Made by a program: the position numbers and the translations under genes. From Escherichia phage kvi: a stretch of 64,000 bases of DNA. Location of the stretch: the sequence record MN850615.1. One strand, written 5' to 3'. The first letter of the stretch is position 1. Each line of letters opens with the position of its first letter. Positions 8,015 through 60,077 of the stretch are shown in pieces. A model generated the notes under the pieces. That model worked only from the letters and a program-made list of their open reading frames with translations. It was not told the DNA's origin and did no database searches.

Positions 8015-9517
8015 ATGCAAGATATTAAAATTCACTTTCTGAACTACTCCCATGTTCAAATTGAATGTAGCGATTCAATTTTATTAGAAATGCGAGATTA
8101 TTTTAGTTTTGAAGTCGAGGGAGCGCGGTTTCAAAAAAGATTTAAGTATGGTGGATGGGATGGGCGTATTCGTCTTTTAGATTACAACGGAAAGCTGCCA
8201 ATCGGCCTAACTAAAACCGTGGGAATCTTCGCTAAAAATATGGGCTATAGCGTATGGGTAGATCCTCGCTTATTCGAAAAAGAACAAGTTACAGAAGAAG
8301 AAATTACAAAATGGTGTAATGACTTAGAATTATATTCCGGTGCTAACAGGATCACCCCGCATTGGTATCAATCAAAGGCCGTCTTTGAAGGTATTCATCA
8401 TAAACGCCGTATGTTAGTTTTGCCTACGTCCGCTGGTAAATCTGCGATTGCTTGTATGTTGTCTCGTTGGTACTTAGAGAACTACGAAGGGAAAGTGTTG
8501 ATCATCGTTCCTACCACGTCGCTAGTGCTGCAAATGCGTGATGACTTTGTTGATTATCGCCAGTTTCCTTATGAAGCAATTCATACTATCATGAGCGGTA
8601 CTAGTAAACACGTAGGTGATCGCCTGATCGTTGTTAGTACGTGGCAATCTGCATGTAAACAACCTCGTGAGTGGTTCCAACAATTCGGGATGGTTATTGT
8701 TGACGAATGTCATAAAGCCACTGCTAAAAACCTGCTAAACATCGTTACTGATATGGATCATTGCCAATTTAAGATCGGCATGACTGGTTCCCCTCGTGAC
8801 GGGAAAGCTAACATGATGCAGTATGTCGGGCTTTTCGGTGATATTTCTAAGATCGTGAGTATTGACCGCCTGATGGAAGAAGGTCAGGTGACAAAACTGA
8901 AAATTAACTGTCTTTTCCTTCGTTATACCGATGAGGAATGTAGCGCGGTTAAGGGGCGAGAATATGCGGAAGAGATCAAGTATATTACGTCTAACCCACG
9001 ACGAAATAAGTTTGCTTGTAATTTGGCGCTAAAACTCGCTAAGAAGGGCGAAAACGTATTCCTGATGTTCCGCAATACTAAGCACGGAAAACTTATGTAT
9101 GACGCGTTACAGAAGGTACACGACAAGGTTTATTATATTGACGGTGGAGTTAAGACAGAAGAACGTGATGAATTTAAGAAAATGGCGGAGGGTGACACCG
9201 GGATCATTTGTGTTGCGTCTTATGGTGTGTTCTCTACTGGTGTTTCAATTAAGAATTTGCACCATGTTATTTTCGGTCATCCAGTGAAGGAATCAACTAT
9301 CGTTCGTCAGAGTATCGGTCGTGCATTGCGCAAACATGGTTCTAAGGATATTGCAACGGTCTGGGATCTTATAGATCATCTGGCGGTGAAGACAAAGAGC
9401 AAGAATGCTAAGAAACAGTTTAGTCACCTTAATTATGCTCTTAAACATGCCCTTGAAAGAATAAAAATTTACAACACCGACCGATTTGAATATGTCACGA
9501 AAACCATCGAGATTTAA
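8015..9517 (+). CDS. uvsW: UvsW DNA/RNA helicase
   Basis: 500 aa from ATG 8015 (track start 8000 is GTG); close match to recalled T4 UvsW (RFKYGGWDGRIRLLDY, LPTSAGKS, DECH, KHGSKDIATVWDL). Confidence 0.95.
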   Translation: MQDIKIHFLNYSHVQIECSDSILLEMRDYFSFEVEGARFQKRFKYGGWDGRIRLLDYNGKLPIGLTKTVGIFAKNMGYSVWVDPRLFEKEQVTEEEITKWCNDLELYSGANRITPHWYQSKAVFEGIHHKRRMLVLPTSAGKSAIACMLSRWYLENYEGKVLIIVPTTSLVLQMRDDFVDYRQFPYEAIHTIMSGTSKHVGDRLIVVSTWQSACKQPREWFQQFGMVIVDECHKATAKNLLNIVTDMDHCQFKIGMTGSPRDGKANMMQYVGLFGDISKIVSIDRLMEEGQVTKLKINCLFLRYTDEECSAVKGREYAEEIKYITSNPRRNKFACNLALKLAKKGENVFLMFRNTKHGKLMYDALQKVHDKVYYIDGGVKTEERDEFKKMAEGDTGIICVASYGVFSTGVSIKNLHHVIFGHPVKESTIVRQSIGRALRKHGSKDIATVWDLIDHLAVKTKSKNAKKQFSHLNYALKHALERIKIYNTDRFEYVTKTIEI

Positions 9518-9522
9518 TAAAT

Positions 9523-9546
9523 AGGGGCTTTAATGCCCCTTTATTC
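9523..9546 (+). terminator. Terminator after uvsW
   Basis: AGGGGC..GCCCCT hairpin followed by TTATTC. Confidence 0.55.
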
Positions 9547-9560
9547 TACGGAGATTAAAA

Positions 9561-9797
9561 ATGATTAGCTTTAAACGTTTTTTGGTTGAGGCCGCTATTG
9601 ACGGTTTCATGCGTAAGATTTATTCTTGTAATACTATCGAGGGATTAAATGAACTTGAGGCATATTATGAGAAGCGCAAGAAAGAAACAGAATTGAAACC
9701 TGCTGATGATATTTCGATCCGTGATGCCATCGCTGGACGCCGTAAGCAACTGGAAGCGGACAACGAGCCGGAAGAGGAGCCGGAAGAGGATTTTTAA
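9561..9797 (+). CDS. uvsW.1: UvsW.1-like small protein
   Basis: 78 aa directly after uvsW; GGAG SD; acidic C-terminus. Confidence 0.55.
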   Translation: MISFKRFLVEAAIDGFMRKIYSCNTIEGLNELEAYYEKRKKETELKPADDISIRDAIAGRRKQLEADNEPEEEPEEDF

Positions 9798-9801
9798 GAT
9801 A

Positions 9802-9828
9802 TAAAAAAAGCCCCATCAATGATGGGGC
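9802..9828 (-). terminator. Terminator-like hairpin (- strand orientation)
   Basis: GCCCCATC-AAT-GATGGGGC with T-run only on the - strand side. Confidence 0.45.
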
Positions 9829-9861
9829 AAAATAAACCAATTAAAATCGGTTATCAACAAA

Positions 9862-10038
9862 TTACATTAACAGCATTGTTTGCTCTACGAGTTGTTCTTG
9901 TTCTTCGCCGTTCGCATCTTCACTAATCGAACGTTCTGTTACTAGCTGTAAGCAGTAGCCAGTGTGAACAACGCCGTTTTCTGTCTGGACGGATAACGCA
10001 TCCTCGACAGGTTGTTTACAACAAATACAGATTTTCAT
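9862..10038 (-). CDS. Small Cys-rich protein (uvsY.-2-like by position)
   Basis: 58 aa, not in track; MKICICCKQP...; between uvsW and uvsY. Confidence 0.35.
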   Translation of the reverse strand: MKICICCKQPVEDALSVQTENGVVHTGYCLQLVTERSISEDANGEEQEQLVEQTMLLM

Positions 10039-10059
10039 AAAAATTCCTCCTGCATGTAT

Positions 10060-10467
10060 TTAGCGACCAGATTCCAGCATACGCAATTCTATAGCATTCT
10101 TGATCGCAAAGCCACGAGATTTAACGATATCAAGTGCGCGACCAGAAAAATCCATTACCATCTGGTAATATGCAATTTTCGTATCAAGCGGTAAGATCTC
10201 GTCGTCTGCTGCCATGACAACTTTCAATTCTGATTTCTCATATTCAGCACGACACCAGTCATCACTACGGTTAGTGTAAAAATCAAGACGATTTTTCATA
10301 GCCTTTTTCTTTTTAGCCTCAAGAGCAATCGTCTCTCTTTTCGCCTCGCTGTAAATCCTTAACCACTTTGAGTATACTACCGGATTATTCAGCGCCTCCC
10401 ATTGCAACTTAGTCGCATCGATCTTCATGTCAGCTTCTAATTGTTCTTTCAAATCGTTTAGGTCCAT
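10060..10467 (-). CDS. uvsY: UvsY recombination mediator
   Basis: 135 aa; matches recalled T4 UvsY (KSRGFAIK, YSKWL, RLDFY). Confidence 0.9.
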   Translation of the reverse strand: MDLNDLKEQLEADMKIDATKLQWEALNNPVVYSKWLRIYSEAKRETIALEAKKKKAMKNRLDFYTNRSDDWCRAEYEKSELKVVMAADDEILPLDTKIAYYQMVMDFSGRALDIVKSRGFAIKNAIELRMLESGR

Positions 10468-10514
10468 AATATCCCCTTATTCACACTAAGACCTATATCA
10501 TATCACACACAAAA

Positions 10515-10901
10515 TCACTTTGCAAGTCTTATGCGTAGTTGTTCAAGATCATCTGGGTTATCTATTACTGAAAAGTAGATTGATACTATGATTGAGTTAT
10601 CGTCGTACTGCGGAGTTACTTCTACTGTCAGGTTTCGGACCCGTGGTTCATAGTTTCGGATCGCCTCATTGATGTTTTTTGATAAAGTATCCACCGTCAG
10701 TGGGTTCATGTTCTCAAACAAAGATTTATTGAGATCGCATCCAAACAGTGGATCAAATGGACGAGATCCCTTGCGAGTAGTCACGATCAGTAGAATAGAA
10801 TCCTTAACCGCTTTAATCCCTATGTTCTTTTTAACGTCGTTATTCCACGATCTGGATATATTGAGATCCAAATCAGTATACATCTGATTAATAGTTGCCA
10901 T
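10515..10901 (-). CDS. 25: Baseplate wedge protein gp25
   Basis: 128 aa from ATG 10901 (track start 10913 is TTG); TTRKGSRPFDP.FGCDL and FSVIDNPDD match T4 gp25. Confidence 0.9.
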   Translation of the reverse strand: MATINQMYTDLDLNISRSWNNDVKKNIGIKAVKDSILLIVTTRKGSRPFDPLFGCDLNKSLFENMNPLTVDTLSKNINEAIRNYEPRVRNLTVEVTPQYDDNSIIVSIYFSVIDNPDDLEQLRIRLAK

Positions 10902-10909
10902 GTTATACC

Positions 10910-11539
10910 TCAAAGAATTTTAAGGAAACTGGATAGACCTGATAATGAATATACACCAGATTCCCCGCATTCGCACTTGATCGGTACTGCCAGCGTGATT
11001 TGATTTCTTGTTAGCTCGTCGATCACTTCTTCCACTTTATCCGTGGTAAGCATATCCAGCACGCGGTCAAAGTCCTGTGCGTTCAGGTCGTCTATATTGA
11101 ATTGCTGATCGCCGATCACGATATATTCGATACATGCAATTACCATCTGCATAATATCAACATCTTCTGTAAACTTAGGTTGACGAAACTTGATTTTTAC
11201 TTGTCCTAAGTCTAGAATATATGGTTCAACTTCTGGTATCTGTGTGCGTGAAACATCAAGAGAGTATACTTTCTCTTTATTGCATACACCACACACCCAA
11301 GTAGCATCAATTTTCATCTTATTGAGGCTGTGACACCATAAGAGAAGAAAAATATATTCTGCTTCGCATTTCTCTAGCTCTAATGCATTGATCCCCGTAC
11401 ATTCATGTATGATCTCTATAACAACCTCTGACAGCTTGCCAGTCTCTTTTGCTGCTACCAGTTTTTGAAATTCGCCGAAGGTGAAAGCACGGGCGTGTAT
11501 CAACTTTTCGCCTAATTGGATCTTGAAAAAGTATTGCAT
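10910..11539 (-). CDS. 26: Baseplate hub subunit gp26
   Basis: 209 aa; position and size as T4 gp26; CxxC pairs. Confidence 0.8.
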   Translation of the reverse strand: MQYFFKIQLGEKLIHARAFTFGEFQKLVAAKETGKLSEVVIEIIHECTGINALELEKCEAEYIFLLLWCHSLNKMKIDATWVCGVCNKEKVYSLDVSRTQIPEVEPYILDLGQVKIKFRQPKFTEDVDIMQMVIACIEYIVIGDQQFNIDDLNAQDFDRVLDMLTTDKVEEVIDELTRNQITLAVPIKCECGESGVYSLSGLSSFLKIL

Positions 11540-11581
11540 AATAAAACACCCTTTATAAACACATAGAATTATTTAGTATTT

Positions 11582-11589
11582 TATAAATA
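11582..11589 (+). promoter_or_regulatory. Late promoter motif TATAAATA for the 51-27-28-29-48-54 operon
   Basis: Exact TATAAATA 21 nt upstream of gp51 ATG. Confidence 0.5.
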
Positions 11590-11609
11590 CCCGAAAGGGG
11601 GATTATACC

Positions 11610-12380
11610 ATGAATATTATCCGAATAAAACTACCGGAAGGTGTGCAGAGATTTAAACCATTCACGGTAAAAGATTATAGAGATTTCCTTCTGGTGTCAA
11701 CTGAAATTAAGATGAATCCAGAAGAAGAACAAACGATTCTTGATGAGCTATTAGAAGAAATATATCCAGACGTAGATCCGGCATTTCGTGAATATATTTT
11801 CCTGAATGTCTTTACTAGTTCAATTGGTAAAACTAAGATACCGCTTTGTTTTACTTGCCCGACTTGCAACAAAGAAAGAAGAATGTTGCTTAACTTACAG
11901 GTTGAAGCACTAAAACCAATCGTTCTAGAGGCCGCAGGGCTTAAAATAACTTTCCGGTATGTTAAACCATCAACCGACTATGCAAAAACGTTTCTGGATG
12001 CGATAGAGCGTGTATCTGATGGTATTAATGACTATCTATGGACTGAATTGCCGGAAGAAGTTAGAGAACAGGTTATCGATTCAATCTCATTTTCTGAATT
12101 TGAAGAAGTTGTTAAGCAGATGCACACAATCAAGATCGAACAAAAGATATCTTGTTGTGAGAGTCATGACCTGAAATACATAGGTCTTCTTCCATTATTC
12201 AAATTGTTGTTGAATCCAGATGAGTTATTCATCTTTTATCGAATAAACCATCTATTGGCAAAATCAAATTATTCTATCAGTGATCTTATGGACATGTTAC
12301 CCGTCGAGAGAAACATTGCACTGACACTGGTCGAGAAAGACGTAAAAGAGGCAAACAATGCAAAGAACGGGGTTTCCTAA
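11610..12380 (+). CDS. 51: Baseplate hub assembly catalyst gp51
   Basis: 256 aa; gene order and size as T4 gene 51; CPTC motif. Confidence 0.8.
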   Translation: MNIIRIKLPEGVQRFKPFTVKDYRDFLLVSTEIKMNPEEEQTILDELLEEIYPDVDPAFREYIFLNVFTSSIGKTKIPLCFTCPTCNKERRMLLNLQVEALKPIVLEAAGLKITFRYVKPSTDYAKTFLDAIERVSDGINDYLWTELPEEVREQVIDSISFSEFEEVVKQMHTIKIEQKISCCESHDLKYIGLLPLFKLLLNPDELFIFYRINHLLAKSNYSISDLMDMLPVERNIALTLVEKDVKEANNAKNGVS

Positions 12381-13467
12381 TGTCTCAATAAAACTTTATC
12401 AGGATTATGAGGCATTTCTAAATCATCGCTTTATAGAATTGGGTGCTACCTTTGTTACAATGACTCTGCGTGATTCGATTCGTGGGGTGAACGAAGGATT
12501 GTTGCAATTCTATGATAATAAGGCGATGCATACAAAATTAAACGGGAGAGAGATCATTCAGATTTCGCTATCCACTGCTAATACAGATGAAGTGTTTAAC
12601 CGAATCTATGGGATCTCTCATAGTAATGTAACAATTGACCAAAAATCTGACAACATTTTAACATTCCAGTTAAAGAGCTATCACGAAACATTAAACCTTA
12701 AATTTTCTCGCTCATTGACAAATAACGCGGTTAATAACGTAACTAGCATGATTGATGCTATCTATAAGGAAGTTCCTTTATGGAAACCTACTATAAAGGG
12801 TGATAACGTTGTTATTCCTCGTTGTCCGTGGGTTAGTACCATAAATGACTATATGGATTTTGTGAGGGCATACGGGCAAAGCGTAGAAACCGAGTCTTTC
12901 GTGTATTGCTGGGAAGATTTTGATGGTATAACGATCGCTGGACACGATACAATATTAAAAAATGAGCCAATACCAGCTATAATCTGTGAGCCTAGACTCA
13001 TGGGGCAGTTTATTGATATGTCGCCTAATCTGATGGTTTTTAATTTCGAGTGGCAGACTAAGAGTAATGCTAAAGTTAAAAATTCATTTAGCAATGTGAC
13101 ATACACAACTATTGATTTTGTTACTAAGCAGTATAATAAAATTATTGTTGGTAATGGGGATAACATTGCACACTTTGCTCATGGTGGCGCTTATGGCGAT
13201 TTAACTTATAAGAATGCGTTTTTGGAAGGTTCTAAACTTGCCACAATAGAACAATATGATTCATATGCTACCGCCGTGTGTCACGGTAATTTTTCGTTGC
13301 GCCCCGGTATGGTTATTCGATTCTTTGATGAGAAGCAACAAGCACGCAATGATTTTATTGTTGACGAAGTGGTGCATGAAATTAGCCGAGAGCAATCATT
13401 AACTCACCTGTATATGATCGGTAACAGCGAAGAATTACAGGAAGTCAAATTTGAAGGTAAGATATAA
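12358..13467 (+). CDS. 27: Baseplate hub subunit gp27
   Basis: 369 aa; MTLRDS..GLLQFYD..NGREIIQIS matches recalled T4 gp27 N-terminus. Confidence 0.9.
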   Translation: MQRTGFPNVSIKLYQDYEAFLNHRFIELGATFVTMTLRDSIRGVNEGLLQFYDNKAMHTKLNGREIIQISLSTANTDEVFNRIYGISHSNVTIDQKSDNILTFQLKSYHETLNLKFSRSLTNNAVNNVTSMIDAIYKEVPLWKPTIKGDNVVIPRCPWVSTINDYMDFVRAYGQSVETESFVYCWEDFDGITIAGHDTILKNEPIPAIICEPRLMGQFIDMSPNLMVFNFEWQTKSNAKVKNSFSNVTYTTIDFVTKQYNKIIVGNGDNIAHFAHGGAYGDLTYKNAFLEGSKLATIEQYDSYATAVCHGNFSLRPGMVIRFFDEKQQARNDFIVDEVVHEISREQSLTHLYMIGNSEELQEVKFEGKI

Positions 13468-13985
13468 TGACAGAAACTAAACCTATGTTAAAATTTGTTG
13501 TTCCTGTAAAAAAATTAGAGATAAACGGGAAACATATCAAGATCCCAAAAATGGGGATTAAGCAACATCGATTATTAAAAGATGTTCGTAGCTGTGATGA
13601 AACATTAAAGATTCTTCTTGATTCAATCTGTCCTGGGTTAAACGCTGCCGAGTCTGAATTGGTTATGCTTAACCTTTGTGCGTTTAATGGTAAGTGTCTG
13701 GAAGAAAAAGATGGTCTTAAGCTGTCTGATGTGTATATTTGTACAGAGACTGAATTTACTTTAAATGGTAAAGTCTTTAAATTTAAAAATCCAATGTATA
13801 CTTCTGACCCCATTATCGATGACGCTGATTTCTTGAGTCATCATTATCACGATCCTAGCGTAGACTTCCATGATTTCCCAGCTTTTATTATGGATTGGGC
13901 TACAGGATTAAGAAAAACTATTGCACTGGATACACCGGAAGGTACTATCTATGGTGGAATTAACATATTGGATCGCCTATCATGA
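13467..13985 (+). CDS. 28: Baseplate hub distal subunit gp28
   Basis: 172 aa; TAATG overlap with gp27; position. Confidence 0.8.
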   Translation: MTETKPMLKFVVPVKKLEINGKHIKIPKMGIKQHRLLKDVRSCDETLKILLDSICPGLNAAESELVMLNLCAFNGKCLEEKDGLKLSDVYICTETEFTLNGKVFKFKNPMYTSDPIIDDADFLSHHYHDPSVDFHDFPAFIMDWATGLRKTIALDTPEGTIYGGINILDRLS

Positions 13986-15715
13986 ATGACGCATTAACAT
14001 CATTTCGCGGGATGCGCAAGGAAGCGGAAGAAAACCCGATTGATAAACTTAACAAATTAGATAAACTTGATTCTATTGATAATTTGCAAGCCGCTACCGA
14101 ATTGGTGGCTGAGACAGTGGAACAAAAATCTAATGAAGTTGTTGGTGCGGTAGAGGATAACACCGCAGCCAATGAATTGACGGCAGAAAATACACAATCT
14201 ACCGCTGGCAATACCCAAAAAACTTATGAAGAATTGCAAAAACTCAATAATTTCTCTTCTCAGATGAATGAGAAATTACGTGGTTTTGGTGTTATGATGG
14301 AACGTAGATTTGGTGTTGTCAGTAAAATGGCTAGCGGTATTGGTGCGATTGAAGAAGCACTGAAAAAACCGGAACAACCGCAAACAATGCCATCACCTCA
14401 GCCAGTTTTGCCTACTGTACCGGAACAGCCTAATAATGACAACTATCAAGGTCTTCCAAAGAAAAAACCAGATGTTGAGGAACGGAAGAAAAAGAACGCC
14501 GCAGATAAGCGCGATGCGGATTCTATGGAAAATCTTCTTAAAGTTGTTCGTGGAGGATTTAAAGAAACCATAGGTATCTCTAATAAGGTCTTAGGGATGT
14601 TATTTAAGATCACCTTGACCGCTATGGCAGAAGCCGCAAAATGGGGCGCTATTTTGATGGGTATTGTTTTTGCCATTGATACCCTTATGATTCATTTCAG
14701 ATATTGGAGTGATTTATTCGAAACAAAATTTGATGAATTTATGGATAAGGCCGGAGAATGGGCTGGACCAATTAGCGATATCTTAACCACGATTCGTCAA
14801 GTTCGAGATTATTGGTCTAAAGGCGAATATGGAGAATTAATTAAATCTCTTGTTATGGGTATTGGTGATGCATTCTATAAAACCTTTATCCAACTTGATC
14901 GAATTATCACTACTGGTATTGCTAAAATTCTTCGCATGATCCCCGGTATGGGTGATTATGCCGATAAGTTAGAATACGGTGCTTTAAAGTCTGCTGTTGC
15001 TAAAGGCTATAAGCCAAATGAAAGAGAACTCGAATTAATGGATAAGGTCGAGTCTGAACACGAAGAAGACAAATATGGAGAGCGCACAGGATGGACAGGA
15101 AAAGCCCGTGATATTGGCGAAGCTATTGGGGATTCTATTAAGGATAAAGTTAACGAAGGTCTTGTTAGTCTGGGCTGGAGAGATCAAAAGGATGTTGACG
15201 CAGAGAAACGACAAGAAGAATTAAAACGCGGGGAATACAAGTCTGTTTCTGCTGAACAACGATCTGCTAGTCGTAAACTTAAAATTAAAAGCGAGGGAGC
15301 GATCAATAATATTAATGAAGTTATGGAGAATTTGAGCGGTGACTATGACAAAGAAAGAATGGAAGAGTTGAAAAAGGATATTGATGTTTACCGTGAGCAA
15401 GTTCAAGATCCTACATTAGTTGAAAGTGATCGTTCTCAGTTAGAGCGTCTTATTGAAAAATTTGATGAGATGTATGCTGATAAAACTAAGGGTGTGGTTC
15501 CAACCAAACCTGTTCCTGCAACTGAAACGGAAACAGCAAAACAAGCGGAACGTACTGAACAAATGCAGAAACAAGCTGCAATCCAGCAACAAACGACAAA
15601 TCAGACCTCAAACGTAAATAATACACAAATTGTAACAAACAATAGAACTATTAAACAGGGTGCACCAACAACTAGAATTGATGCCCCTGGTACAATTAAT
15701 ATGGGGAACTTTTAA
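13982..15715 (+). CDS. 29: Baseplate hub / tail length determinator gp29
   Basis: 577 aa; coiled-coil and Q-rich; position and size as T4 gp29. Confidence 0.85.
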   Translation: MNDALTSFRGMRKEAEENPIDKLNKLDKLDSIDNLQAATELVAETVEQKSNEVVGAVEDNTAANELTAENTQSTAGNTQKTYEELQKLNNFSSQMNEKLRGFGVMMERRFGVVSKMASGIGAIEEALKKPEQPQTMPSPQPVLPTVPEQPNNDNYQGLPKKKPDVEERKKKNAADKRDADSMENLLKVVRGGFKETIGISNKVLGMLFKITLTAMAEAAKWGAILMGIVFAIDTLMIHFRYWSDLFETKFDEFMDKAGEWAGPISDILTTIRQVRDYWSKGEYGELIKSLVMGIGDAFYKTFIQLDRIITTGIAKILRMIPGMGDYADKLEYGALKSAVAKGYKPNERELELMDKVESEHEEDKYGERTGWTGKARDIGEAIGDSIKDKVNEGLVSLGWRDQKDVDAEKRQEELKRGEYKSVSAEQRSASRKLKIKSEGAINNINEVMENLSGDYDKERMEELKKDIDVYREQVQDPTLVESDRSQLERLIEKFDEMYADKTKGVVPTKPVPATETETAKQAERTEQMQKQAAIQQQTTNQTSNVNNTQIVTNNRTIKQGAPTTRIDAPGTINMGNF

Positions 15716-16773
15716 TGAAAATTAGTGTTATCAATGATGCCGTTGATAGCTTTAAAGCGGGGGTTAAAACCTCCGCTGGTTTTACCTCAAAAAATAAAGG
15801 GAAAACATTAACCGCTCAATTCCCCGCTGAACGTGCTAGCGGTAATGATGCTAGCGGTTATTATATCAACGACTTATATAATAATGGTCTGTTATTCACT
15901 GCATACGATTATACATCTCGTACTACCGGATCGTTGCGTGATTTCAGGAAAAAGAAAAATGTTGCTAGTGGTTTTGGTGGTAGCGTTAATATCGCTGGTT
16001 TTGATTTAAATTTGGGTGGGAGAAATGCTGCATTTGACCGAGAGGCAATTGCTAATATTCTTCTTCCTCGTAGTCAATCTGACGTTGACGCTGCTAGCCA
16101 TAAGTTTAATGATGTTGGTGAATCTGTCATTTCTCGCGGCGGTGGTACTTTAGGCGGTGCTCTTTCTAATATGGCATCTACTGCCGTTTTTGGTGGTATC
16201 GAAAGTATTACTGGTGGATACCTTGCCGATCACGGTGAACAGATTTATAATACTGCGCGAAGCATGTATGCTGGTGCTGACGCACGAACTAAAAACTACG
16301 TATGGCATCTAACCCCACGTAGTATTGAAGACCTTCGCAATATTCTGATCATATACGAAACGTTTTTAGAATTGTCTTATGGTTCTAGTGGTATTTCCAG
16401 CACCGCAAAAGAATTAAAAGCGGAAGTTGATGCGTGGTATAAAAATACACTATTGAGAAAATCCACTCCAGAGGAAGCGAAGAGAAATGATACTCTTTTT
16501 GAAGGGATCACCGATTTTCTATCAAACGCAATTACTGTATCTAACCCGACAATATGGATGATCTCTAACTTCGGCAAGCGTACATCGTTTGAAGGGCGTA
16601 GCGATGCATTTGGTCCCGCTCAGATCTCAAGTGTACGTCTGGACAAGTCGCCTGATGGTAAGTTTAATGGCCTTGCTATTTCTCCTAACTTGCCGAGTAC
16701 CTTTGTTCTGGAAGTATCATTTAGAGAGATCTTGACACTTTCCCGTGGTACTATATTTGGGAGTGCGGCATAA
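15715..16773 (+). CDS. 48: Baseplate tail tube cap gp48
   Basis: 352 aa; ATGA coupling to 29; position. Confidence 0.85.
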   Translation: MKISVINDAVDSFKAGVKTSAGFTSKNKGKTLTAQFPAERASGNDASGYYINDLYNNGLLFTAYDYTSRTTGSLRDFRKKKNVASGFGGSVNIAGFDLNLGGRNAAFDREAIANILLPRSQSDVDAASHKFNDVGESVISRGGGTLGGALSNMASTAVFGGIESITGGYLADHGEQIYNTARSMYAGADARTKNYVWHLTPRSIEDLRNILIIYETFLELSYGSSGISSTAKELKAEVDAWYKNTLLRKSTPEEAKRNDTLFEGITDFLSNAITVSNPTIWMISNFGKRTSFEGRSDAFGPAQISSVRLDKSPDGKFNGLAISPNLPSTFVLEVSFREILTLSRGTIFGSAA

Positions 16774-17705
16774 TGTTTGATTTAAATGACTTTAACGAAC
16801 AAGCCGCTAACCTTGACTTTCAGCGATCTAACTTATTCAGCGTGGCATTTGCCACCACTCCAAGTAATAAGACACAAGCGATCCTAGAAAGTATGGGCGG
16901 TGCGGTATATGATATTATACCAAATGCATTAAATGACTATTTCGGGATTACTCGTGGTGATTATACTGACGCATTAACAAATCTTGCTGTGCAGGGTGTT
17001 AGGCGTGCTGTTGATTCATCTGGTGTCAAAAAGTATCTTTTAGGTGCAATGTCATCCCGCGTAGTTCAATCTCTTCTGGGGCAATTTGATGTTGGTACAT
17101 ATGCGCTTGATTGGTTCAATATGGCATATAAGACAAGCGGTCTTCTGGTGTATGCTGTTAAGGTTCCAGAAAACAGATTGAATTATGAAATGGACCGTAA
17201 CCACAATGCGCCAAACATTCGAATTACCGGACGTGATTTTGATCCGCTTGTATTGAGCTTTAGAATGGACTCTAGCGCATCAAACTATAGAGCAATGCAG
17301 GATTGGGTTAACTCAGTAGAAGACCCCGTTACAGGGCTTCGTGCGCTTCCTGTTGACGTTGAAGCAGATATTCAGGTTAACTTACATAACCGAATGGGAG
17401 TTCCTCACACGATCATGATGTTTAATGGTTGTGTTCCTGTTGGTGTGAGTGCACCGGAATTAACCTATGAAAACAACAACGAAATTACAACATTCGATGT
17501 TACTTTTGCGTATAGGACTATGCAAACTGGTGCTGTAGGAGAGCAAGCCGCGCGAGAATGGATTGAGGATAAGGCAATAAACGCAATAACAAACACTTTC
17601 GGCAATAATTTACTTGATAGTGGGTTATCTGCTGCTGGTAATGCTTTATCGCGTCTAAATGGCGTTGGTGGGCGTGTGGTGAATACTGTCACTAACTGGT
17701 TCTGA
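16773..17705 (+). CDS. 54: Baseplate tail tube initiator gp54
   Basis: 310 aa; position; TAATG coupling to 48. Confidence 0.85.
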   Translation: MFDLNDFNEQAANLDFQRSNLFSVAFATTPSNKTQAILESMGGAVYDIIPNALNDYFGITRGDYTDALTNLAVQGVRRAVDSSGVKKYLLGAMSSRVVQSLLGQFDVGTYALDWFNMAYKTSGLLVYAVKVPENRLNYEMDRNHNAPNIRITGRDFDPLVLSFRMDSSASNYRAMQDWVNSVEDPVTGLRALPVDVEADIQVNLHNRMGVPHTIMMFNGCVPVGVSAPELTYENNNEITTFDVTFAYRTMQTGAVGEQAAREWIEDKAINAITNTFGNNLLDSGLSAAGNALSRLNGVGGRVVNTVTNWF

Positions 17706-17714
17706 TAAGCGAAA

Positions 17715-17745
17715 GGCGGGGATTATCCCCCGCCTTTTTATTTTG
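17715..17745 (+). terminator. Terminator after gene 54 (convergent junction)
   Basis: GGCGGGGGA-TTA-TCCCCCGCC followed by TTTTTATTTT. Confidence 0.7.
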
Positions 17746-18223
17746 CTAAATCATTGCAATATTTTAGTGCCTTAGTTTGAAATTCTGCGCTGTTAAGTTC
17801 TTCATAACGGTCATAATCACCGTTTAATGCTGCCTTTCTTGCTTCTTGCTCTATCTGCATGTCAGACATGATAATACAGCGATCCCGTGCTTTCATCTTC
17901 TCAAGTTGTATAGACTCTTCTTTCTGCTTGCGCAATTCTTCTTGACGCTTCTTTTCTTCTTGTGCTTTCTCTTCCTGCGCTTCTTTGATTGCATCCTTGA
18001 ACATCTGCGTTTGTGGTGCTAAACCAACTTTAACGCGATCCACGTCTCGACGTTCCATTTTAGAAATAAAGCACGATTCGATCTGATCATCACTTGCATA
18101 TGCTGCTTTACATTCACGAAGCAAGAAAACCGGATCTGATTTAGCATTCATCATAGCTTCCATGTTGGCACAACCAGTAAGCATGAATGCAGCCGCAAGA
18201 CCAATCAGTTTAATCATTTTCAT
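17738..18223 (-). CDS. Predicted lipoprotein
   Basis: 161 aa; signal peptide with lipobox LTGC; Glu/Lys-rich coiled segment. Confidence 0.6.
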   Translation of the reverse strand: MKMIKLIGLAAAFMLTGCANMEAMMNAKSDPVFLLRECKAAYASDDQIESCFISKMERRDVDRVKVGLAPQTQMFKDAIKEAQEEKAQEEKKRQEELRKQKEESIQLEKMKARDRCIIMSDMQIEQEARKAALNGDYDRYEELNSAEFQTKALKYCNDLAK

Positions 18224-19044
18224 TTAGTCACCTCACCGAAAATTGTAAATTGTCTACGATTCTCATCGCCGAAAGATTCTACTACGTCGTTTACCTTGAC
18301 GCAAGTCCCGCGCGGTAAAATTACTTCACATTCGCAAGGGTTCCATGCAATTGACCCAACAACAAAACCTTTATGATCTTTTACGTCAATTACCCATGAT
18401 ACATTACAAGAATGCTGCATCTTTCCGGTCATTGATTCATATCGATTCTCACAATAAAGGCTAGTGCTGTTTGATAGCCATCCTCCAAAGATGATTGGTG
18501 TCATGCTGGTCGATACAAAGTTTTTAAAGGTAAACTCCTTATCTTCAATGATGCGCTCTATTGTCTGAATGTCAAGATGTTGACCGCGATAAAGAGTACC
18601 GTTTAACTTTTCGGTTTTATCCATGACACAATCCATCAAATCAACAATCTCTGATATCTCATCGGTCATGTCTTCTTCCCCTAAGAGAGCACCATTTACC
18701 CATTCGTATTGCTCAGACACATAATCACAGATTGCATTATATTCTGCTGGTGTTATGTTGTTATGTTTGTAATGTTTGAATACATTATCTCCAAAGTCTT
18801 CGGAGTGTACTTCATACATCACATTAATGATTTTCTTGACAAATCCATAATCTTGTGTCTCACGCTCAAGGAAGCGGATAACCTTCACATAATCATCAAA
18901 GTTAATCTGATCGCTGATCATCTCAGTGATCATGTAGCCATTAATCCCCTCAATGTCATATGTTTCGATGTAATTATCCATACGTTCCATCATTGATTCG
19001 CGTGATTCTTCCGAAAGACGAAAATCCTGTAATTTCTTGAACAT
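18220..19044 (-). CDS. ADP-ribosyltransferase, Alt/Mod family (second copy)
   Basis: 274 aa; R-S-E triad: LYRGQ, FVSTS, ECEVILPRG; paralogous to Alt C-terminal domain. Confidence 0.8.
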   Translation of the reverse strand: MFKKLQDFRLSEESRESMMERMDNYIETYDIEGINGYMITEMISDQINFDDYVKVIRFLERETQDYGFVKKIINVMYEVHSEDFGDNVFKHYKHNNITPAEYNAICDYVSEQYEWVNGALLGEEDMTDEISEIVDLMDCVMDKTEKLNGTLYRGQHLDIQTIERIIEDKEFTFKNFVSTSMTPIIFGGWLSNSTSLYCENRYESMTGKMQHSCNVSWVIDVKDHKGFVVGSIAWNPCECEVILPRGTCVKVNDVVESFGDENRRQFTIFGEVTK

Positions 19045-19061
19045 TTTAAACCTCCCATATA

Positions 19062-19095
19062 ACAGAAAACGGGGCTAGTATAAAACTAGTCCCCG
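19062..19095 (-). terminator. Hairpin/terminator between alt and downstream ART gene
   Basis: CGGGGCTAGT..ACTAGTCCCCG stem, T-run on - strand. Confidence 0.45.
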
Positions 19096-19122
19096 TTTGA
19101 GTCAACCATTATTTCTTAAAAA

Positions 19123-21174
19123 TTACATTTTAAATTTATCTGGCATTGCGTCTACAGATACCAGATCAGCGATAAGCTGACGTAGAGTTGCCTTATCTGC
19201 TTTCTTACGTTCGGTTTTAGCTTCGCTAATGAAGCTGGAGAAAGACAGGTCAGAAGCAGGTTTAACAACACCTTCACGGATGAATGCATCACCGTCCGCG
19301 ATCATCTCGCCAGATTCTTGTAATGCTGCCAGTTCATTTTTGTTCATAATATGTGCCTCAATGTAATAAGTTTCTTGTGAATCCGTCGATGCCGTAGCAC
19401 GAGTTACCGTATCAAAGGATAACACAACACCGCGAGGAAGTAAAATCTCGCATTCTTTGTAAGCAAATGCTTTGTTACCTACTGGCAAGACAGGGATGTT
19501 TTCCGCGCCAGCAATGGAGAAAGCAACATTAGCGCCACCTTCACCACGAGAGCCAGCCATAGAATCAACACCAGCAACGGCACTAGCCACGTTTGCATTC
19601 CAGCCGCCAAAAATGTTAGGTGCAAGGGAAGTGCTCACATAGTTTTTAAAGTAAAACGCTTTTTGCTTACGTGCAGTTTCCCACATTTGCGACCGGAAGT
19701 CCATACCACGATACAGAATAGTACCCGGATCAAGTTTAACTCCATAGTTGGAGAAGGCATTATCCAGTGCATCACACATCTTGACCAATTCTTCTGGATC
19801 TGCGATGCCTTCAAACTCTTCCAGCTTACGGTCGGTTAGGAAGTTGTTCATATTGATGTATGCTGCATCGGCATATTCGCTCAACACAAAACCTTCCGCG
19901 CCCGGCAGATCAAGATCAATATCTGCCATCATTTCACCCATGTTGCTAGCAATTGCTTCAAACATACCGGAAGCAACATTACGTAGGGCATCGGTTTTAA
20001 TCTGGGTGATGTGACTACGCAGCATTTCAGCTTTTACATCTGCTGGCATAGACTGGTCTACTCGATCCATTGCCAGGGCGGTGATCTTGTTTTCGAATAC
20101 TTCCTCGCTCATGATTTCTTTTAAGCGTTTGATTGATGCTGCGATAACTTCCGCAGACAATGGATCATATTGATCCTGAACTTTTACCAGTTCGCTTACT
20201 GCGTATTTTGCATCGGCTTCGCTTTCAAAAATAGTACGCATGAAACCATAGCGAGTGATAATATCACTTGTCCAGTCATTCAGAGAACGAGCGGTTGAAC
20301 GTTCTAAGGCTTGACGGTCAATCAGAGTATTAAACTGTTTCTTAGGTTCTGCTTCGGTGATATCTTCTTCCGGTTTAAGATTAATTTTTTCTGGATGATT
20401 CACATAGTCGCTGTTATAGGTCGCTTGAGTTTTCAGCATTTCTTCTTTAGTCAAACGAGATTTAGCCGCTACGCGTTGTTCTGCTTCCGCGTTTCGTTCT
20501 TCTTCTGACACAAGACTAGCCGCATATGCCTCATCTTTAGTCAGAGATTCACCAGTAGCCTTAGATACCCAGCGATCACCTAAATCACTTTCTACTTTAG
20601 TGAACAAGGATTCATCAAGTTTAATCCCTTTAATCTTATCAATCGCCATCCCGCGACGCTTGACAACAACTAAAGCGATCTTTTTGCTGGTCATTACTTC
20701 CTGCTGGAATACTTCAAACTTCGGTGTACGACGCACCAAACGCTCTATAACGCGCTTAACCAGTTCGGTCTTACCTTTCATGCGGGATACGTTAAAACGG
20801 AACATAACAGCGTCTAATTGCGCTTTACGGGCTGTTTCCATAACCACATCAAAAGCACTTGACATAACTGCAATCGGGTTATCGCCTAGACCATTTTTAA
20901 GCTGTACAATACGACCGCTTTTGTTCATTTCGCACAGTACAACATGTGCGGTCTTGTCACCCATACGAATGATTTTAGGTGTTTTGTTGGTGAAGTTACA
21001 AAGACGGACAATCACATCTTTATCGCGTGTCTGTACTGCAAAAAGCTGTTTAGGATTCTGCTTAGGCTTTAAGCACTGTACCGGAGCAATACTGCCAAAG
21101 TTTTCTTCCTCTTCCGTCAACAGCCATTTCTCGAAAGATTCAATCATTAGATCGTCGATTTCTAAGTTAAACAT
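19123..21174 (-). CDS. alt: Alt ADP-ribosyltransferase
   Basis: 683 aa (T4 Alt 682 aa); ILYRGMD, YVSTSLAPNIFGG, ECEILLPRG. Confidence 0.9.
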   Translation of the reverse strand: MFNLEIDDLMIESFEKWLLTEEEENFGSIAPVQCLKPKQNPKQLFAVQTRDKDVIVRLCNFTNKTPKIIRMGDKTAHVVLCEMNKSGRIVQLKNGLGDNPIAVMSSAFDVVMETARKAQLDAVMFRFNVSRMKGKTELVKRVIERLVRRTPKFEVFQQEVMTSKKIALVVVKRRGMAIDKIKGIKLDESLFTKVESDLGDRWVSKATGESLTKDEAYAASLVSEEERNAEAEQRVAAKSRLTKEEMLKTQATYNSDYVNHPEKINLKPEEDITEAEPKKQFNTLIDRQALERSTARSLNDWTSDIITRYGFMRTIFESEADAKYAVSELVKVQDQYDPLSAEVIAASIKRLKEIMSEEVFENKITALAMDRVDQSMPADVKAEMLRSHITQIKTDALRNVASGMFEAIASNMGEMMADIDLDLPGAEGFVLSEYADAAYINMNNFLTDRKLEEFEGIADPEELVKMCDALDNAFSNYGVKLDPGTILYRGMDFRSQMWETARKQKAFYFKNYVSTSLAPNIFGGWNANVASAVAGVDSMAGSRGEGGANVAFSIAGAENIPVLPVGNKAFAYKECEILLPRGVVLSFDTVTRATASTDSQETYYIEAHIMNKNELAALQESGEMIADGDAFIREGVVKPASDLSFSSFISEAKTERKKADKATLRQLIADLVSVDAMPDKFKM

Positions 21175-21214
21175 TTTATATCCTCTAGTTGATAACCTAT
21201 AAACCTATATTTAT

Positions 21215-21236
21215 GAAAAAGGGGCTTAACGCCCCC
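21215..21236 (-). terminator. Terminator closing the accessory early block
   Basis: GGGGC-TTAAC-GCCCC with flanking A/T runs. Confidence 0.5.
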
Positions 21237-21490: not shown

Positions 21491-21519
21491 ATTATGATAT
21501 ACACCATCTGTTATGTCAA
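21491..21519 (-). promoter_or_regulatory. Early promoter cassette (TTGACA-17-CATAAT)
   Basis: rc of TGTCAAC..ATTATG plus conserved leader CGAAACGAA..GGAG. Confidence 0.6.
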
Positions 21520-21722: not shown

Positions 21723-21752
21723 ATTATGGGGGATCACCGATCCCCCTGTCAA
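21723..21752 (-). promoter_or_regulatory. Early promoter with palindromic spacer (PeSL-like)
   Basis: TTGACA-GGGGGATCGGTGATCCCC-CATAAT on - strand. Confidence 0.65.
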
Positions 21753-21759
21753 CAATTTT

Positions 21760-22278
21760 TTAGTTATTTTTTAATTGCTCATCTTGCAATAGGGCAATCA
21801 CATGCTGGCGATGTTCTTCCGATTGAGGCACACCGAAAAAGTTTGTTTTGTAGAAATACTCTAATCGGTCTTCTCGTGTGCTCTCTTCCATCATGATCGC
21901 GGGTAGTCCGAGATTTCTGAAACGTCGCTTTTCTGCTGGCGTAAAATCACTGTAATACAACATAGAATCATCATTACAAGCAATGCTAAACTCATCATTC
22001 ATAAAGGAGAATATTGCGTTTAAACGCTGTTTACCGTCCACGATTTCGATCTCATAGCGAGAGCCATCATCAATCTTAGCCATTGCGATAGCACCAACCG
22101 GAAAATCATTAATAAGGTTTTCGATAAACATACGTTTGTTTTCGGTGTCCCATACTAAAGGACGCTGATAATCTGGGTTCATGTTGATATAGCCATCTTC
22201 TAACCATGCATCATAAACAGAGATGACAAAGTTTTTAGTATTGGTATAGTAACGGCGTTTAGGCGTTAAACGGTTCAT
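21760..22278 (-). CDS. DUF262 / ParB-like (GmrSD N-terminal-type) domain protein
   Basis: 172 aa from ATG 22278; PDYQRPLVW and IVDGKQRLNAI match DUF262 signature; no nuclease domain. Confidence 0.6.
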   Translation of the reverse strand: MNRLTPKRRYYTNTKNFVISVYDAWLEDGYINMNPDYQRPLVWDTENKRMFIENLINDFPVGAIAMAKIDDGSRYEIEIVDGKQRLNAIFSFMNDEFSIACNDDSMLYYSDFTPAEKRRFRNLGLPAIMMEESTREDRLEYFYKTNFFGVPQSEEHRQHVIALLQDEQLKNN

Positions 22279-22279
22279 G

Positions 22280-22612
22280 TTATAGTCTCCTGAATGGATC
22301 ATCACGTAAATCAATATCTTTTAAGAACTCATCCCATGAATGCCGGATATTGTTCTTAATTCTCCAGATAAGCGCAGGGATTGAACGCTCTCCCATCTGG
22401 AAGTATGGATCATATGATCCGTATGCCCAATATGCTACTACAATTCCACAATCAGCGCAATAGTATTCTATTTCACTGGCTGGCGACCAAAGTCCATCAA
22501 TATGATCGGTGATCTTGCTTTCGATGTTATGGCTATGACAATCAGGGCAACGGATGCAATGACCTTGTTTATCGTAATTTGACGTTAGCGAATACTTAAA
22601 CAATCTCATCAT
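22280..22612 (-). CDS. Zinc-ribbon protein
   Basis: 110 aa; CIRCPDC ... CADCG; ATGATGA overlap with upstream gene. Confidence 0.55.
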   Translation of the reverse strand: MMRLFKYSLTSNYDKQGHCIRCPDCHSHNIESKITDHIDGLWSPASEIEYYCADCGIVVAYWAYGSYDPYFQMGERSIPALIWRIKNNIRHSWDEFLKDIDLRDDPFRRL

Positions 22613-23325
22613 AGATCCTTATTTGCTTCAAATACTGCCTTTGCGAATCCTCGCGGGGTAAGTGACCTGATAGTCTTTGTTTTCGTTCCTTTCCCGCCTA
22701 GCTTAGAATGCTGTTTACTGTACCCTTTATTAATCTGCAACGGTTTCTTTTCTGGCATTATAAAGCCTTGTCCGGTCCATAAGCAAGTCTTTTTCGGGTA
22801 CATATCACGGGCGGCGATATACTCAGGAAAAGTAGGATGTTTATCATCTTCCGGCAAATAACCGCCATATTCCCACGGGTGGAACATGTAATCAGGCTTA
22901 CGCCACATGCTAGAGATAACGCTTACAGGATTCTCTATCATGTAGGGAACTCCTAGCCATTCACCCAAATAAGCGGTTATTTTAGCTGCCCTTACATCAT
23001 GAACTTGAATCAATGGTCCTTGTTCTCGTTTCTTTCGTTCAAAGTGTGCAGCGCCACTAACAGCTAAATTGGTGCACGGTGGGAATGCAAAGATAATATC
23101 CGGTTTCCCCCATTCAAGGTCCATTGCTCTTTCCAGCCAGTTCAAATCAATCCAGGTGTTTACATAGGTAATGTTTGGATGTTCAAATCTGGTATTATAC
23201 TTTTTGTATGTGCCGTGGTCGCCATCATCAGCATTAAAGCAGATCACCTTATGACCTGCTTTAGCCCATTCTAGCCCCATTATCCCCGATCCGTCAAAGT
23301 TACAGAATATTAATTTTTGTTTCAT
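22609..23325 (-). CDS. Compact DNA C5-cytosine methyltransferase-like protein
   Basis: 238 aa; motif I FCNFDGSG, motif IV FPPCTN, motif VI MIENPV, C-terminal RSLTPRGFAKAV; very short variable region. Confidence 0.6.
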   Translation of the reverse strand: MKQKLIFCNFDGSGIMGLEWAKAGHKVICFNADDGDHGTYKKYNTRFEHPNITYVNTWIDLNWLERAMDLEWGKPDIIFAFPPCTNLAVSGAAHFERKKREQGPLIQVHDVRAAKITAYLGEWLGVPYMIENPVSVISSMWRKPDYMFHPWEYGGYLPEDDKHPTFPEYIAARDMYPKKTCLWTGQGFIMPEKKPLQINKGYSKQHSKLGGKGTKTKTIRSLTPRGFAKAVFEANKDL

Positions 23326-59297: not shown

Positions 59298-60077
59298 ATG
59301 GCAGTAGTTGGTGTTCCTGGTTGGATTGGAAGTTCAGCCGCAAATGAAACAGGGCAACGATGGATGAGTCAAGCGGCTGGTCAATTAAGATTGGGTGTTC
59401 CTTGCTGGATGAGTCAATTTGCAGGTCGCTCGCGAGAAATTATTCATACACTTGGTGCAGACCATAACTTCAATGGTCAGTGGTTCCGTGATAGATGCTT
59501 TGAAGCAGGTAGTACACCTATAGTGTTTAATATCACTGGAGATTTAGTATCATATTCTAAAGATGTTCCTTTATTCTTTATGTACGGAGATACACCGAAT
59601 GAATATGTTCAGTTGAATATACACGGCGTAACGATGTATGGACGTGGCGGTAATGGCGGTAGCAATGGTCCTGGATCAGCCGGGGGGCATTGTATTCAAA
59701 ATGATATTGGTGGGAGACTAAGAATTAATAATGGTGGAGCTATTGCAGGTGGCGGTGGCGGTGGCGGTGGCGGTAACAGGGGTCGACTAGTATTTGGTGG
59801 TGGCGGTGGTCGCCCATTCGGTGCTGGTGGGTCTTCCTCGAATATGGGTTCTGGTGCAACCGCTGGCACTATTTACGCTCCGGGTCAAGGATCTGTTGGT
59901 TCGGGGTCTCTTAGTGCATATACAGGCGGTGCGGGCGGTAACGTTGGTGCTGCTGGAGGAAGATGTAATACTCACGGTAACGGTACAGAATATAACGGCG
60001 GAGCTGCTGGTTATGCTGTTATAGGGTCTGCTCCAACGTGGCAAAATCGCGGAGCTATTTACGGACCGGCTGTTTAG
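59298..60077 (+). CDS. 38: T2-type receptor-recognising adhesin gp38
   Basis: 259 aa; N-terminus [17 protein letters not shown] and glycine-rich motifs. Confidence 0.85.
59748..59776 (+). repeat. (GGTGGC)n codon repeat in gp38
   Basis: Tandem GGCGGTGGC units encoding poly-Gly. Confidence 0.6.

Follow-up and report, generated by a model that had tools for sequence, protein, structure and literature searches.

The alt locus of Escherichia phage kvi (sequence record MN850615.1) encodes two ADP-ribosyltransferases (ARTs) and a predicted lipoprotein, and we consider it probable that these are produced from two units: a late unit for a packaged, full-length Alt, and an early operon for a short cytoplasmic enzyme together with an envelope lipoprotein. 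The short enzyme and the lipoprotein are called ART2 and Lpp here, and all coordinates are positions in the window, the whole 64,000-nucleotide (nt) stretch of phage DNA that was analyzed. The locus consists of three open reading frames (ORFs) on the minus strand, Alt (683 amino acids (aa), 19123–21174), ART2 (274 aa, 18220–19044), and Lpp (161 aa, 17738–18223), with gene 54 convergent to them. The contrast between the two enzymes that the sequence supports is one of timing and delivery. Alt is predicted to be made late, packaged, and injected, whereas ART2 and Lpp are predicted to be made early by the host sigma-70 polymerase.

Judging from the 5-kb stretch around the locus, which matches 58 phage records at 95–99.7% identity, all of them Krischvirus (the nearest is Escherichia phage FL37, 99.7%), the window comes from a Krischvirus, an RB49-like T4-type coliphage, and the locus is its alt locus. 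The genes for the baseplate hub and tail-tube initiator (29, 48, and 54; Pfam T4_tail_cap, E 1e-124, and Phage_T4_gp19) flank the locus, and its position equals that of alt in T4. An earlier note on this DNA had described two adjacent Alt-type enzymes and a coupled lipoprotein. The tandem ARTs and the lipoprotein are genuine and intact, yet they are already known from annotation and from a paper on paralogy. The alt gene is annotated as such in RB49 and GEC-3S, and the original RB49 GenBank record labels ORF183c, which represents the ART2 family, as "similar to C-terminal part of T4 Alt protein". The RefSeq name for ART2 is ADP-ribosyltransferase, and the third ORF is annotated as "putative lipoprotein" in phage W115. 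RB49ORF183c, 44RRORF188c, and T4 alt.-1/alt.-2 have been described as paralogous duplications of alt (Nolan et al. 2006, PMC1524935). The earlier interpretation is reasonable, but it mostly repeats existing annotation; as first reported, it added nothing to the public record, where dozens of Krischvirus genomes already contain identical proteins. A literature search on Krischvirus ARTs and on T4-like exclusion lipoproteins returned nothing specific.

The full-length enzyme matches the profile of phrog_802 ("Alt-like") over positions 2–674 of 674 with an E-value of 9e-180, and scores 37.3 bits against Pfam PF03496 (ADPrib_exo_Tox), passing the gathering cut-off of 23.4. Together with the alignment to T4 Alt, the profile indicates the full Alt architecture, that is, an N-terminal region of ~330 aa, the catalytic region, and a conserved C-terminal tail. 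The catalytic residues are Arg489 (19708–19710), Ser514-Thr-Ser516, and Glu574-Cys-Glu576 (19447–19455). ART2 gives a higher score against PF03496 (59.3 bits with the same cut-off, E 4e-16), matches phrog_15144 ("ADP-ribosyltransferase", E 3e-198), which is a PHROG of its own, and aligns with positions 330–602 of the phrog_802 profile (E 3e-45). Its catalytic residues are Arg153 (18586–18588), Ser178-Thr-Ser180 (from 18513 downwards), and Glu238-Cys-Glu240 (18325–18333). Both pairwise and multiple alignments place Arg153, Ser178-Thr-Ser180, and Glu238-x-Glu240 of ART2 in register with Arg489, Ser514-Thr-Ser516, and Glu574-x-Glu576 of Alt and with the corresponding residues of T4 Alt. The R-S-E triad that the earlier note had read in ART2, with the motifs it quoted, therefore survives careful alignment, and the triad of Alt is intact as well.

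The extent of ART2 should be noted, since the same note had equated ART2 with the catalytic domain of Alt alone. The equation is too simple: ART2 covers residues ~330–600 of Alt at an identity of only ~30–37%, and besides the N-terminal ~330 aa it lacks the conserved C-terminal tail of ~85 aa (…DGD…MPxKF) common to full-length Alts. This tail seems to be a separable module, judging from two metagenomic Alt-like proteins, P0007 (415 aa) and P0008 (316 aa), that lack the N-terminal domain of Alt and keep the tail, ending in (M/L)(S/P)xKF. Motifs for gp21-type cleavage (L/I-x-E) are found in the N-termini of both Alt and ART2, though they are too short to discriminate and were not used.

Whichever Alt catalytic region was tested, its identity to ART2 is ~30%, and the score of ART2 against T4 Alt (88 bits) is higher than that against the adjacent Alt (67 bits). 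A recent copying of the adjoining alt gene was rejected, since ART2 is equidistant from all Alts tested. These comparisons mark ART2 as an old paralogue that evolves independently of the Alt catalytic region. All 58 Krischvirus records contain it at full length with at least 97% identity, and RB49 ORF183c is 100% identical to it. Relatives found in a large protein database are 83, 63, 48, 45, and 44% identical, and the Arg, S-T-S, and E-x-E residues are invariant in all of them. The full-length, conserved, triad-keeping sequences in isolates and divergent metagenomic relatives suggest that ART2 is a maintained and presumably active enzyme, not an inactive duplicate. The opposite explanation is that ART2 is a decaying, functionless remnant of an alt duplication. 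T4 does have two dead fragments of the alt N-terminus (alt.-1 and alt.-2; detected by tblastn) at the same position, and tandem alt copies are common, with three in Aeromonas phage 44RR2.8t. Besides its conservation in the isolates and the invariance of its motifs among relatives at 44–83% identity, however, ART2 has a conserved promoter and Shine-Dalgarno sequence of its own and a confident predicted fold, and we regard decay as scarcely credible.

The AlphaFold model of ART2 has a pLDDT of 79. In a Foldseek search of the PDB with this model, the top matches are Vis, C3bot2, Certhrax, iota Ia, and CDTa, with E-values of ~1e-9 to 4e-10 and a probability of 1.0. The model thus has the ART fold and matches C3/VIP2-type arginine or asparagine ARTs. 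Solved structures of the Alt family were also sought by sequence, giving weak matches only, the best for ART2 being Tre1 (E 0.07). The loop at residues 187–210, following the S-T-S motif (GGWLSNSTSLYCENRY), is modeled with low confidence. The sequence of this loop is strongly conserved within the ART2 clade and differs from that of Alt, and the loop may determine the specificity of ART2.

The expression signals upstream of the two enzymes differ. Upstream of alt, an intrinsic terminator on the minus strand (21220–21236; GGGGGCGTTAAGCCCCT followed by TTTTC), identified in a terminator scan and by inspection of the sequence, closes the preceding early unit of small ORFs. It is followed by a late-promoter-like motif, CATAAATA (21208–21215, minus strand), located 33 nt before the alt ATG. 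ATAAATA occurs 10 times in the whole window (at 1732, 2293, 7972, 7990, 9517, 11583, 21208, 31996, 49782, and 54893) against 23.7 expected, a more than two-fold depletion, and nine of these copies are situated 20–45 nt upstream of an ORF start. The depletion and the positions suggest that the motif is kept almost exclusively where it is used. The same search finds no ATAAATA upstream of ART2. In T4, a terminator and then TATAAATA occupy the equivalent place upstream of alt, and in L007, a distant relative, a terminator and then a late promoter likewise precede alt. A terminator upstream of alt has been reported for five of six T4-like genomes, and the first base of RB49 late promoters is poorly conserved (Nolan et al. 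2006, PMC1524935).

The spacer between alt and ART2 is 78 nt long and contains a PeSL-type regulatory cassette (19051–19108, minus strand), recognized from its sequence, a promoter scan, RNA folding, the annotation of GEC-3S, and its conservation. The candidate promoter is formed by a −35 element TTGACT (19100–19105), a 17-nt spacer, and a −10 element TATACT (19077–19082), with 10 of 12 matches in the promoter scan; the GEC-3S record also annotates a promoter between alt and ART2. A G/C-rich hairpin (about 19068–19097) overlaps the −10 element and is followed by a T tract and the Shine-Dalgarno sequence GGGAGG (19051–19056). For the hairpin, RNA folding predicts an energy of −20.9 kcal/mol (z −2.6). 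Four metagenomic loci (L007, L012, L013, and L025), with flanking proteins at only ~45% identity, have retained the element, and their stems carry compensatory changes, such as GGGG/CCCC to GGAG/CTCC.

This spacer has the architecture of the PeSL cassettes of RB49 and phi1, that is, an AT-rich stretch, consensus-like −35 and −10 elements, a G/C-rich stem-loop, and a Shine-Dalgarno sequence with a start codon, and is predicted to act as a promoter and attenuator. Promoter and terminator activities of other RB49/phi1 copies are experimentally demonstrated in the available text of Arbiol et al. (2010, PMC2839356), and the alt–ART2 copy is not among the tested copies named in that text. It differs from those cassettes also in being stably conserved at one locus instead of flanking a mobile ORFan. 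At the other end of the operon, an intrinsic terminator predicted to act in both directions (17711–17738; terminator scan and sequence, 11-bp stem with seven GC pairs) separates the Lpp gene from gene 54, which is convergent to it, and GEC-3S annotates a terminator on both strands at this place. Two more PeSL-type sigma-70 promoters (TTGACA … CATAAT, 11 of 12 matches) are found on the minus strand at 21491–21519 and 21723–21752. Each has a hairpin in or beside its spacer and precedes a small ORF (70 aa and 54 aa, respectively), and both are situated at the edge of the large hyperplastic region from alt to the ligase gene.

These signals bear on whether ART2 is a virion protein that is packaged and injected like Alt and acts on different targets. 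ART2 shares the Alt-type catalytic region, ARTs encoded beside morphogenesis genes are often packaged (PMC9503650), and late read-through from alt would be possible if the hairpin leaks. Contrarily, ATAAATA precedes alt and not ART2, a conserved sigma-70 promoter precedes ART2, and ART2 lacks both the ~330-aa N-terminal region and the C-terminal tail kept by every full-length Alt. Packaging of ART2 thus appears decidedly improbable, and early synthesis from the PeSL-type promoter is preferred.

The start of the Lpp gene overlaps the stop of ART2 as ATGA (18220–18223), just as the earlier note had reported. In 58 of 58 isolates, Alt is followed by ART2, Lpp, and the convergent gp54, in this order. 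The same order is observed in loci L007, L008, L009, L012, L013–L015, L025, and L026, in each of which the ART2 and Lpp genes overlap or abut. The linkage holds even with ART2 at 45% identity and the most distant Lpp at 24% identity.

Lpp, which belongs to the RB49 ORF182c family, is supported as a predicted lipoprotein by its sequence, alignments, a structural model, and the annotation in W115. It starts with MKMIKLIGLAAAFMLTG followed by Cys, a segment (coded at 18170–18223) that contains a charged n-region, a hydrophobic core, and the lipobox L-T-G-C with the cysteine at position 18 (MKMIK-LIGLAAAFM-LTG-C18). Gly17, Cys18, Cys38, Cys51, Cys116, and Cys156 are invariant across the family, as are a few other positions, and the rest is variable. 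The charged n-region, the h-region, and the agreement with the lipobox pattern [LVI][ASTVI][GAS]C point to a lipoprotein signal and probable lipidation, so that the earlier reading of this gene holds as a prediction. The presence of four conserved cysteines in an exported protein suggests that two disulfides are formed. According to the sorting rules of Escherichia coli, Ala (or Ser) at position +2 suggests Lol-dependent sorting to the outer membrane, and the Ala at +2 of Lpp thus suggests an outer-membrane location. In the AlphaFold model (pLDDT 83), the mature part is all-helical, with a long central helix at residues 72–133 (60 residues).

A profile search finds the Lpp family in 10 clusters among 1.84 billion representatives, all from the same phage lineage. 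Searches of Pfam, PHROG, NCBIfam, and PADLOC gave signal-peptide-level or sub-threshold matches only. No similarity of Lpp in sequence or fold was found to T5 Llp, Cor, T4 Sp, or T4 Imm. The weak PHROG match to Cor (E 0.007) covers residues 1–45, which is the signal peptide only, and no homology of the Cor/Llp type was found for the mature domain.

An Lpp family member is located directly 3′ of ART2 in 58 of 58 isolates, in three allele types at 30–47% amino acid identity. Allele A, the reference, is that of this window and most isolates (50 records). Allele B (two records, Whisky and JK32) is 31% identical to A, and allele C (six records: 011D4, AV108, E26, PHB13, G37-3, and PTE-Eco09) is ~30% identical to A and 47% to B. 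In 011D4, the region corresponding to 17754–18186 of the window is unalignable while both sides are 96–98% identical, and this is the sole replacement within the 18.5-kb stretch compared. The replaced segment codes for mature Lpp and lies between the signal-peptide region and the terminator. In Whisky (L019), the identity breaks at 18168, just past the coding region of the Lpp signal peptide, and the lipoprotein part is unalignable. From the breakpoints in these two phages, the exchangeable cassette is the mature-Lpp coding part at 17754–18168 (minus strand). Given the low identity of the alleles, the identity of at least 97% in the adjoining ART2, and the local breakpoints, Lpp evolves far faster than its neighbors and is exchanged as a cassette.

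Compared with the window, Whisky carries an 8.7-kb replacement (9509–18168) that includes genes 54, 48, 29, 28, 27, 51, 26, and 25 and uvsY at 74–78% nucleotide identity. The rest of the Whisky genome is 97–98% identical, and its gene 29 is annotated as two ORFs. Co-segregation of the Lpp alleles with the baseplate-hub/tape-measure module was rejected: despite the block from gp54 to gp25 in Whisky, 011D4 swaps the mature-lipoprotein part alone.

The coupling of ART2 and Lpp could be taken to indicate a functional toxin/immunity or enzyme/partner pair. In all genomes examined, the two genes overlap or directly adjoin each other, even at protein identities as low as 45% and 24%, respectively, and the weak best match of ART2 among PDB sequences, Tre1, is a type VI secretion system (T6SS) ART toxin that has an immunity partner. 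However, ART2 lacks a signal peptide and depends on NAD in the cytoplasm, while Lpp is predicted to be exported; divergent Lpp alleles stand beside a nearly invariant ART2, which indicates no co-evolution; and Lpp has no similarity to immunity proteins of the ARH or macro type. A co-evolving partner in the same compartment, as expected for an ART toxin and its immunity protein, was thus not found in ART2/Lpp, and such a pairing is very unlikely. Since the two proteins are predicted to be in different compartments and do not co-evolve, their coupling is read as shared early regulation, not as a physical or toxin/immunity partnership.

Another possibility is that Lpp is a receptor-masking exclusion protein of the Cor or T5 Llp type, which binds the outer-membrane receptor of the phage itself. 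The predicted early context of this lipoprotein, its Ala at +2, and the rapid evolution of its mature domain would agree with this, as would the weak match to Cor. The confinement of that match to the signal peptide is unfavorable to this explanation, as is the replacement of the lipoprotein cassette alone in 011D4. Allele A should also be compared with the tail-fiber tips. It is 98.8% identical between RB49 and this phage, though gp37 is 45% identical and only this phage has a gp38 adhesin at that place. Tracking of the receptor-binding protein by the Lpp alleles was accordingly rejected, and receptor masking is an unlikely role. As for the fiber genes themselves, gp37 (56492–59260, plus strand) is 45% identical to RB49 gp37 over the first ~650 residues, and the T2-type gp38 adhesin (59298–60077, plus strand; PF05268, E 1.5e-69) is not found at this position in RB49; gp37/gp38 is a mosaic host-range module within the genus.

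For Lpp, a role in exclusion or protection at the level of the envelope is our best guess, a tentative one that we would not expect to hold as often as it fails. It is suggested by the obligate linkage to ART2, the restriction to one lineage, and the cassette-like hypervariability. A more elaborate proposal is that the ORF182c family is an unrecognized Krischvirus envelope exclusion/protection factor replacing Sp/Imm, exchanged as a cassette via the signal-peptide region and the terminator arms, and acting with ART2 in a two-pronged early program, in which ART2 would reprogram the cytoplasm, possibly in place of ModA, and Lpp would close the envelope; we consider this possible though doubtful.

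The favored two-unit model of the locus can be described as follows. Anatomy, motifs, conservation, linkage, and allele exchange are observed in the sequences, and from them the model predicts when the genes are expressed, packaging, activity, targets, lipidation, and what Lpp does. In the first unit, alt, situated behind a terminator and a late-type promoter, would be expressed late, and its product would be packaged in the head and injected with the DNA; by analogy with T4, the injected Alt would modify arginines of host proteins by ADP-ribosylation as soon as the next infection begins. In the second unit, the PeSL hairpin would attenuate read-through from alt, and the sigma-70 promoter would drive the early two-gene operon ART2–Lpp as far as the bidirectional terminator that separates it from gene 54. 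ART2 is most likely a cytoplasmic arginine-specific mono-ADP-ribosyltransferase made de novo early; we infer the activity from its conserved active site and fold. It would fill a Mod-like role with an Alt-type domain in a phage that has a single ModB-like Mod and no ModA. Lpp would be translationally coupled to ART2, exported, lipid-anchored, and probably disulfide-bonded, and would act at the envelope in phage–phage or phage–host conflict, for example in superinfection exclusion or in protection against lysis from without. ART2 and Lpp would then be tied by co-expression and not by physical partnership.

Several points weigh against this model. The number of promoter-like sites in the region (15) is not in excess of that in shuffled sequences (12.3 expected), and the ART2 promoter is accordingly assigned by its position and conservation. 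The hairpin may merely attenuate, in which case ART2 and Lpp could be expressed late via read-through from alt, and the absence of the Alt terminal regions does not prove that ART2 is unpackaged. Synteny is widely conserved in T4-like genomes and so is no proof by itself of a functional link between ART2 and Lpp. The presence of a ModB-like gene means that a Mod-like role for ART2 is not required. For Lpp, library and fold searches found no informative relative, the suggested role is drawn only from location, timing, and variability, and the occurrence of one allele with two tail-fiber tips argues against receptor-specific masking.

Upstream of the locus, a gene at 21760–22314 (minus strand) encodes a 184-aa protein with only the N-terminal domain (DUF262) of GmrSD (Pfam E 8e-20; PADLOC NsnA, E 4e-20; PD-T4-2_A). 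Beside it are a zinc-ribbon ORF (22280–22612, minus strand) and a 238-aa ORF (22609–23325, minus strand) that is named a DNA methyltransferase in RefSeq and has no Pfam match. A defense-type GmrSD domain beside a methyltransferase in a lytic phage may form an anti-phage or anti-defense module.

In comparison with known systems, ART2 resembles toxins of the C3, VIP2, and iota types (Vis, C3bot, Certhrax, Ia, CDTa, and Tre1) in the predicted fold and the catalytic motif. It differs from them in sequence (13–20% identity) and in being an intracellular enzyme of a phage, unaccompanied by any component for secretion or translocation. Lpp, for its part, resembles the envelope exclusion proteins T5 Llp, Cor, T4 Sp, and Imm in its predicted export and envelope location, early context, and rapid variation; no homologues of T4 Sp or Imm were recognizable in RB49. 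The always-linked, cassette-swapped Lpp is a clean candidate for a new phage exclusion/protection function, and its three natural alleles exist in otherwise near-isogenic phages from collections used for phage therapy.

Tandem copies of alt characterize T4-type phages in general. Aeromonas phage 44RR2.8t (L021, 11040–15908) has three tandem Alt-like genes of 319, 639, and 642 aa adjoining gene 54, with no lipoprotein gene, which marks the alt locus as a recurrent site of ART amplification in these phages. The arrangements differ, however: 44RR2.8t has full-length extra alt copies and a short copy placed upstream (ORF187c, ORF188c), T4 retains only dead N-terminal fragments, and the Krischvirus lineage alone has a short, catalytic-only copy downstream of alt with an early promoter and a coupled lipoprotein.

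The Alt of the window is a full-length homologue of T4 Alt, which likewise adjoins gene 54, has matching R, S-T-S, and E-x-E residues, and is preceded by a terminator and a late promoter in the same layout, though the overall identity is just 26%. T4 gpAlt, an arginine-specific mono-ADP-ribosyltransferase, is a head protein present in ~40 copies and is N-terminally processed by gp21 (PMC9958956). Head packaging, gp21 processing, and injection are known for T4 gpAlt alone, and would apply to the Krischvirus Alt by analogy.

ART2 resembles T4 ModA and ModB in its small size, lack of packaging regions, predicted early context, and R-S-E active site. It belongs, however, to the Alt/VIP2 branch: no Mod-family homology was detected by BLAST against ModA, ModB, and the RB49 Mod (E at least 0.4), and a relationship of ART2 to ModA or ModB was rejected on this basis. 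The Mod gene of RB49 (RB49p014, beside srd and outside this window) resembles ModB (E 8e-10) more closely than ModA (E 2e-5); no second Mod gene was found in RB49. This gives Krischviruses a set of three ARTs (Alt, ART2, and an enzyme of the ModB-like type), the same number as T4 (Alt, ModA, and ModB). That ART2 covers the role of the missing ModA is speculative. The three-ART paradigm of T4 is rebuilt here from Alt, a predicted early enzyme derived from Alt, and a single ModB-like enzyme. Such a rebuilt set makes the RB49-like phages a natural comparison with T4 for determining which host targets need ADP-ribosylation, and when.

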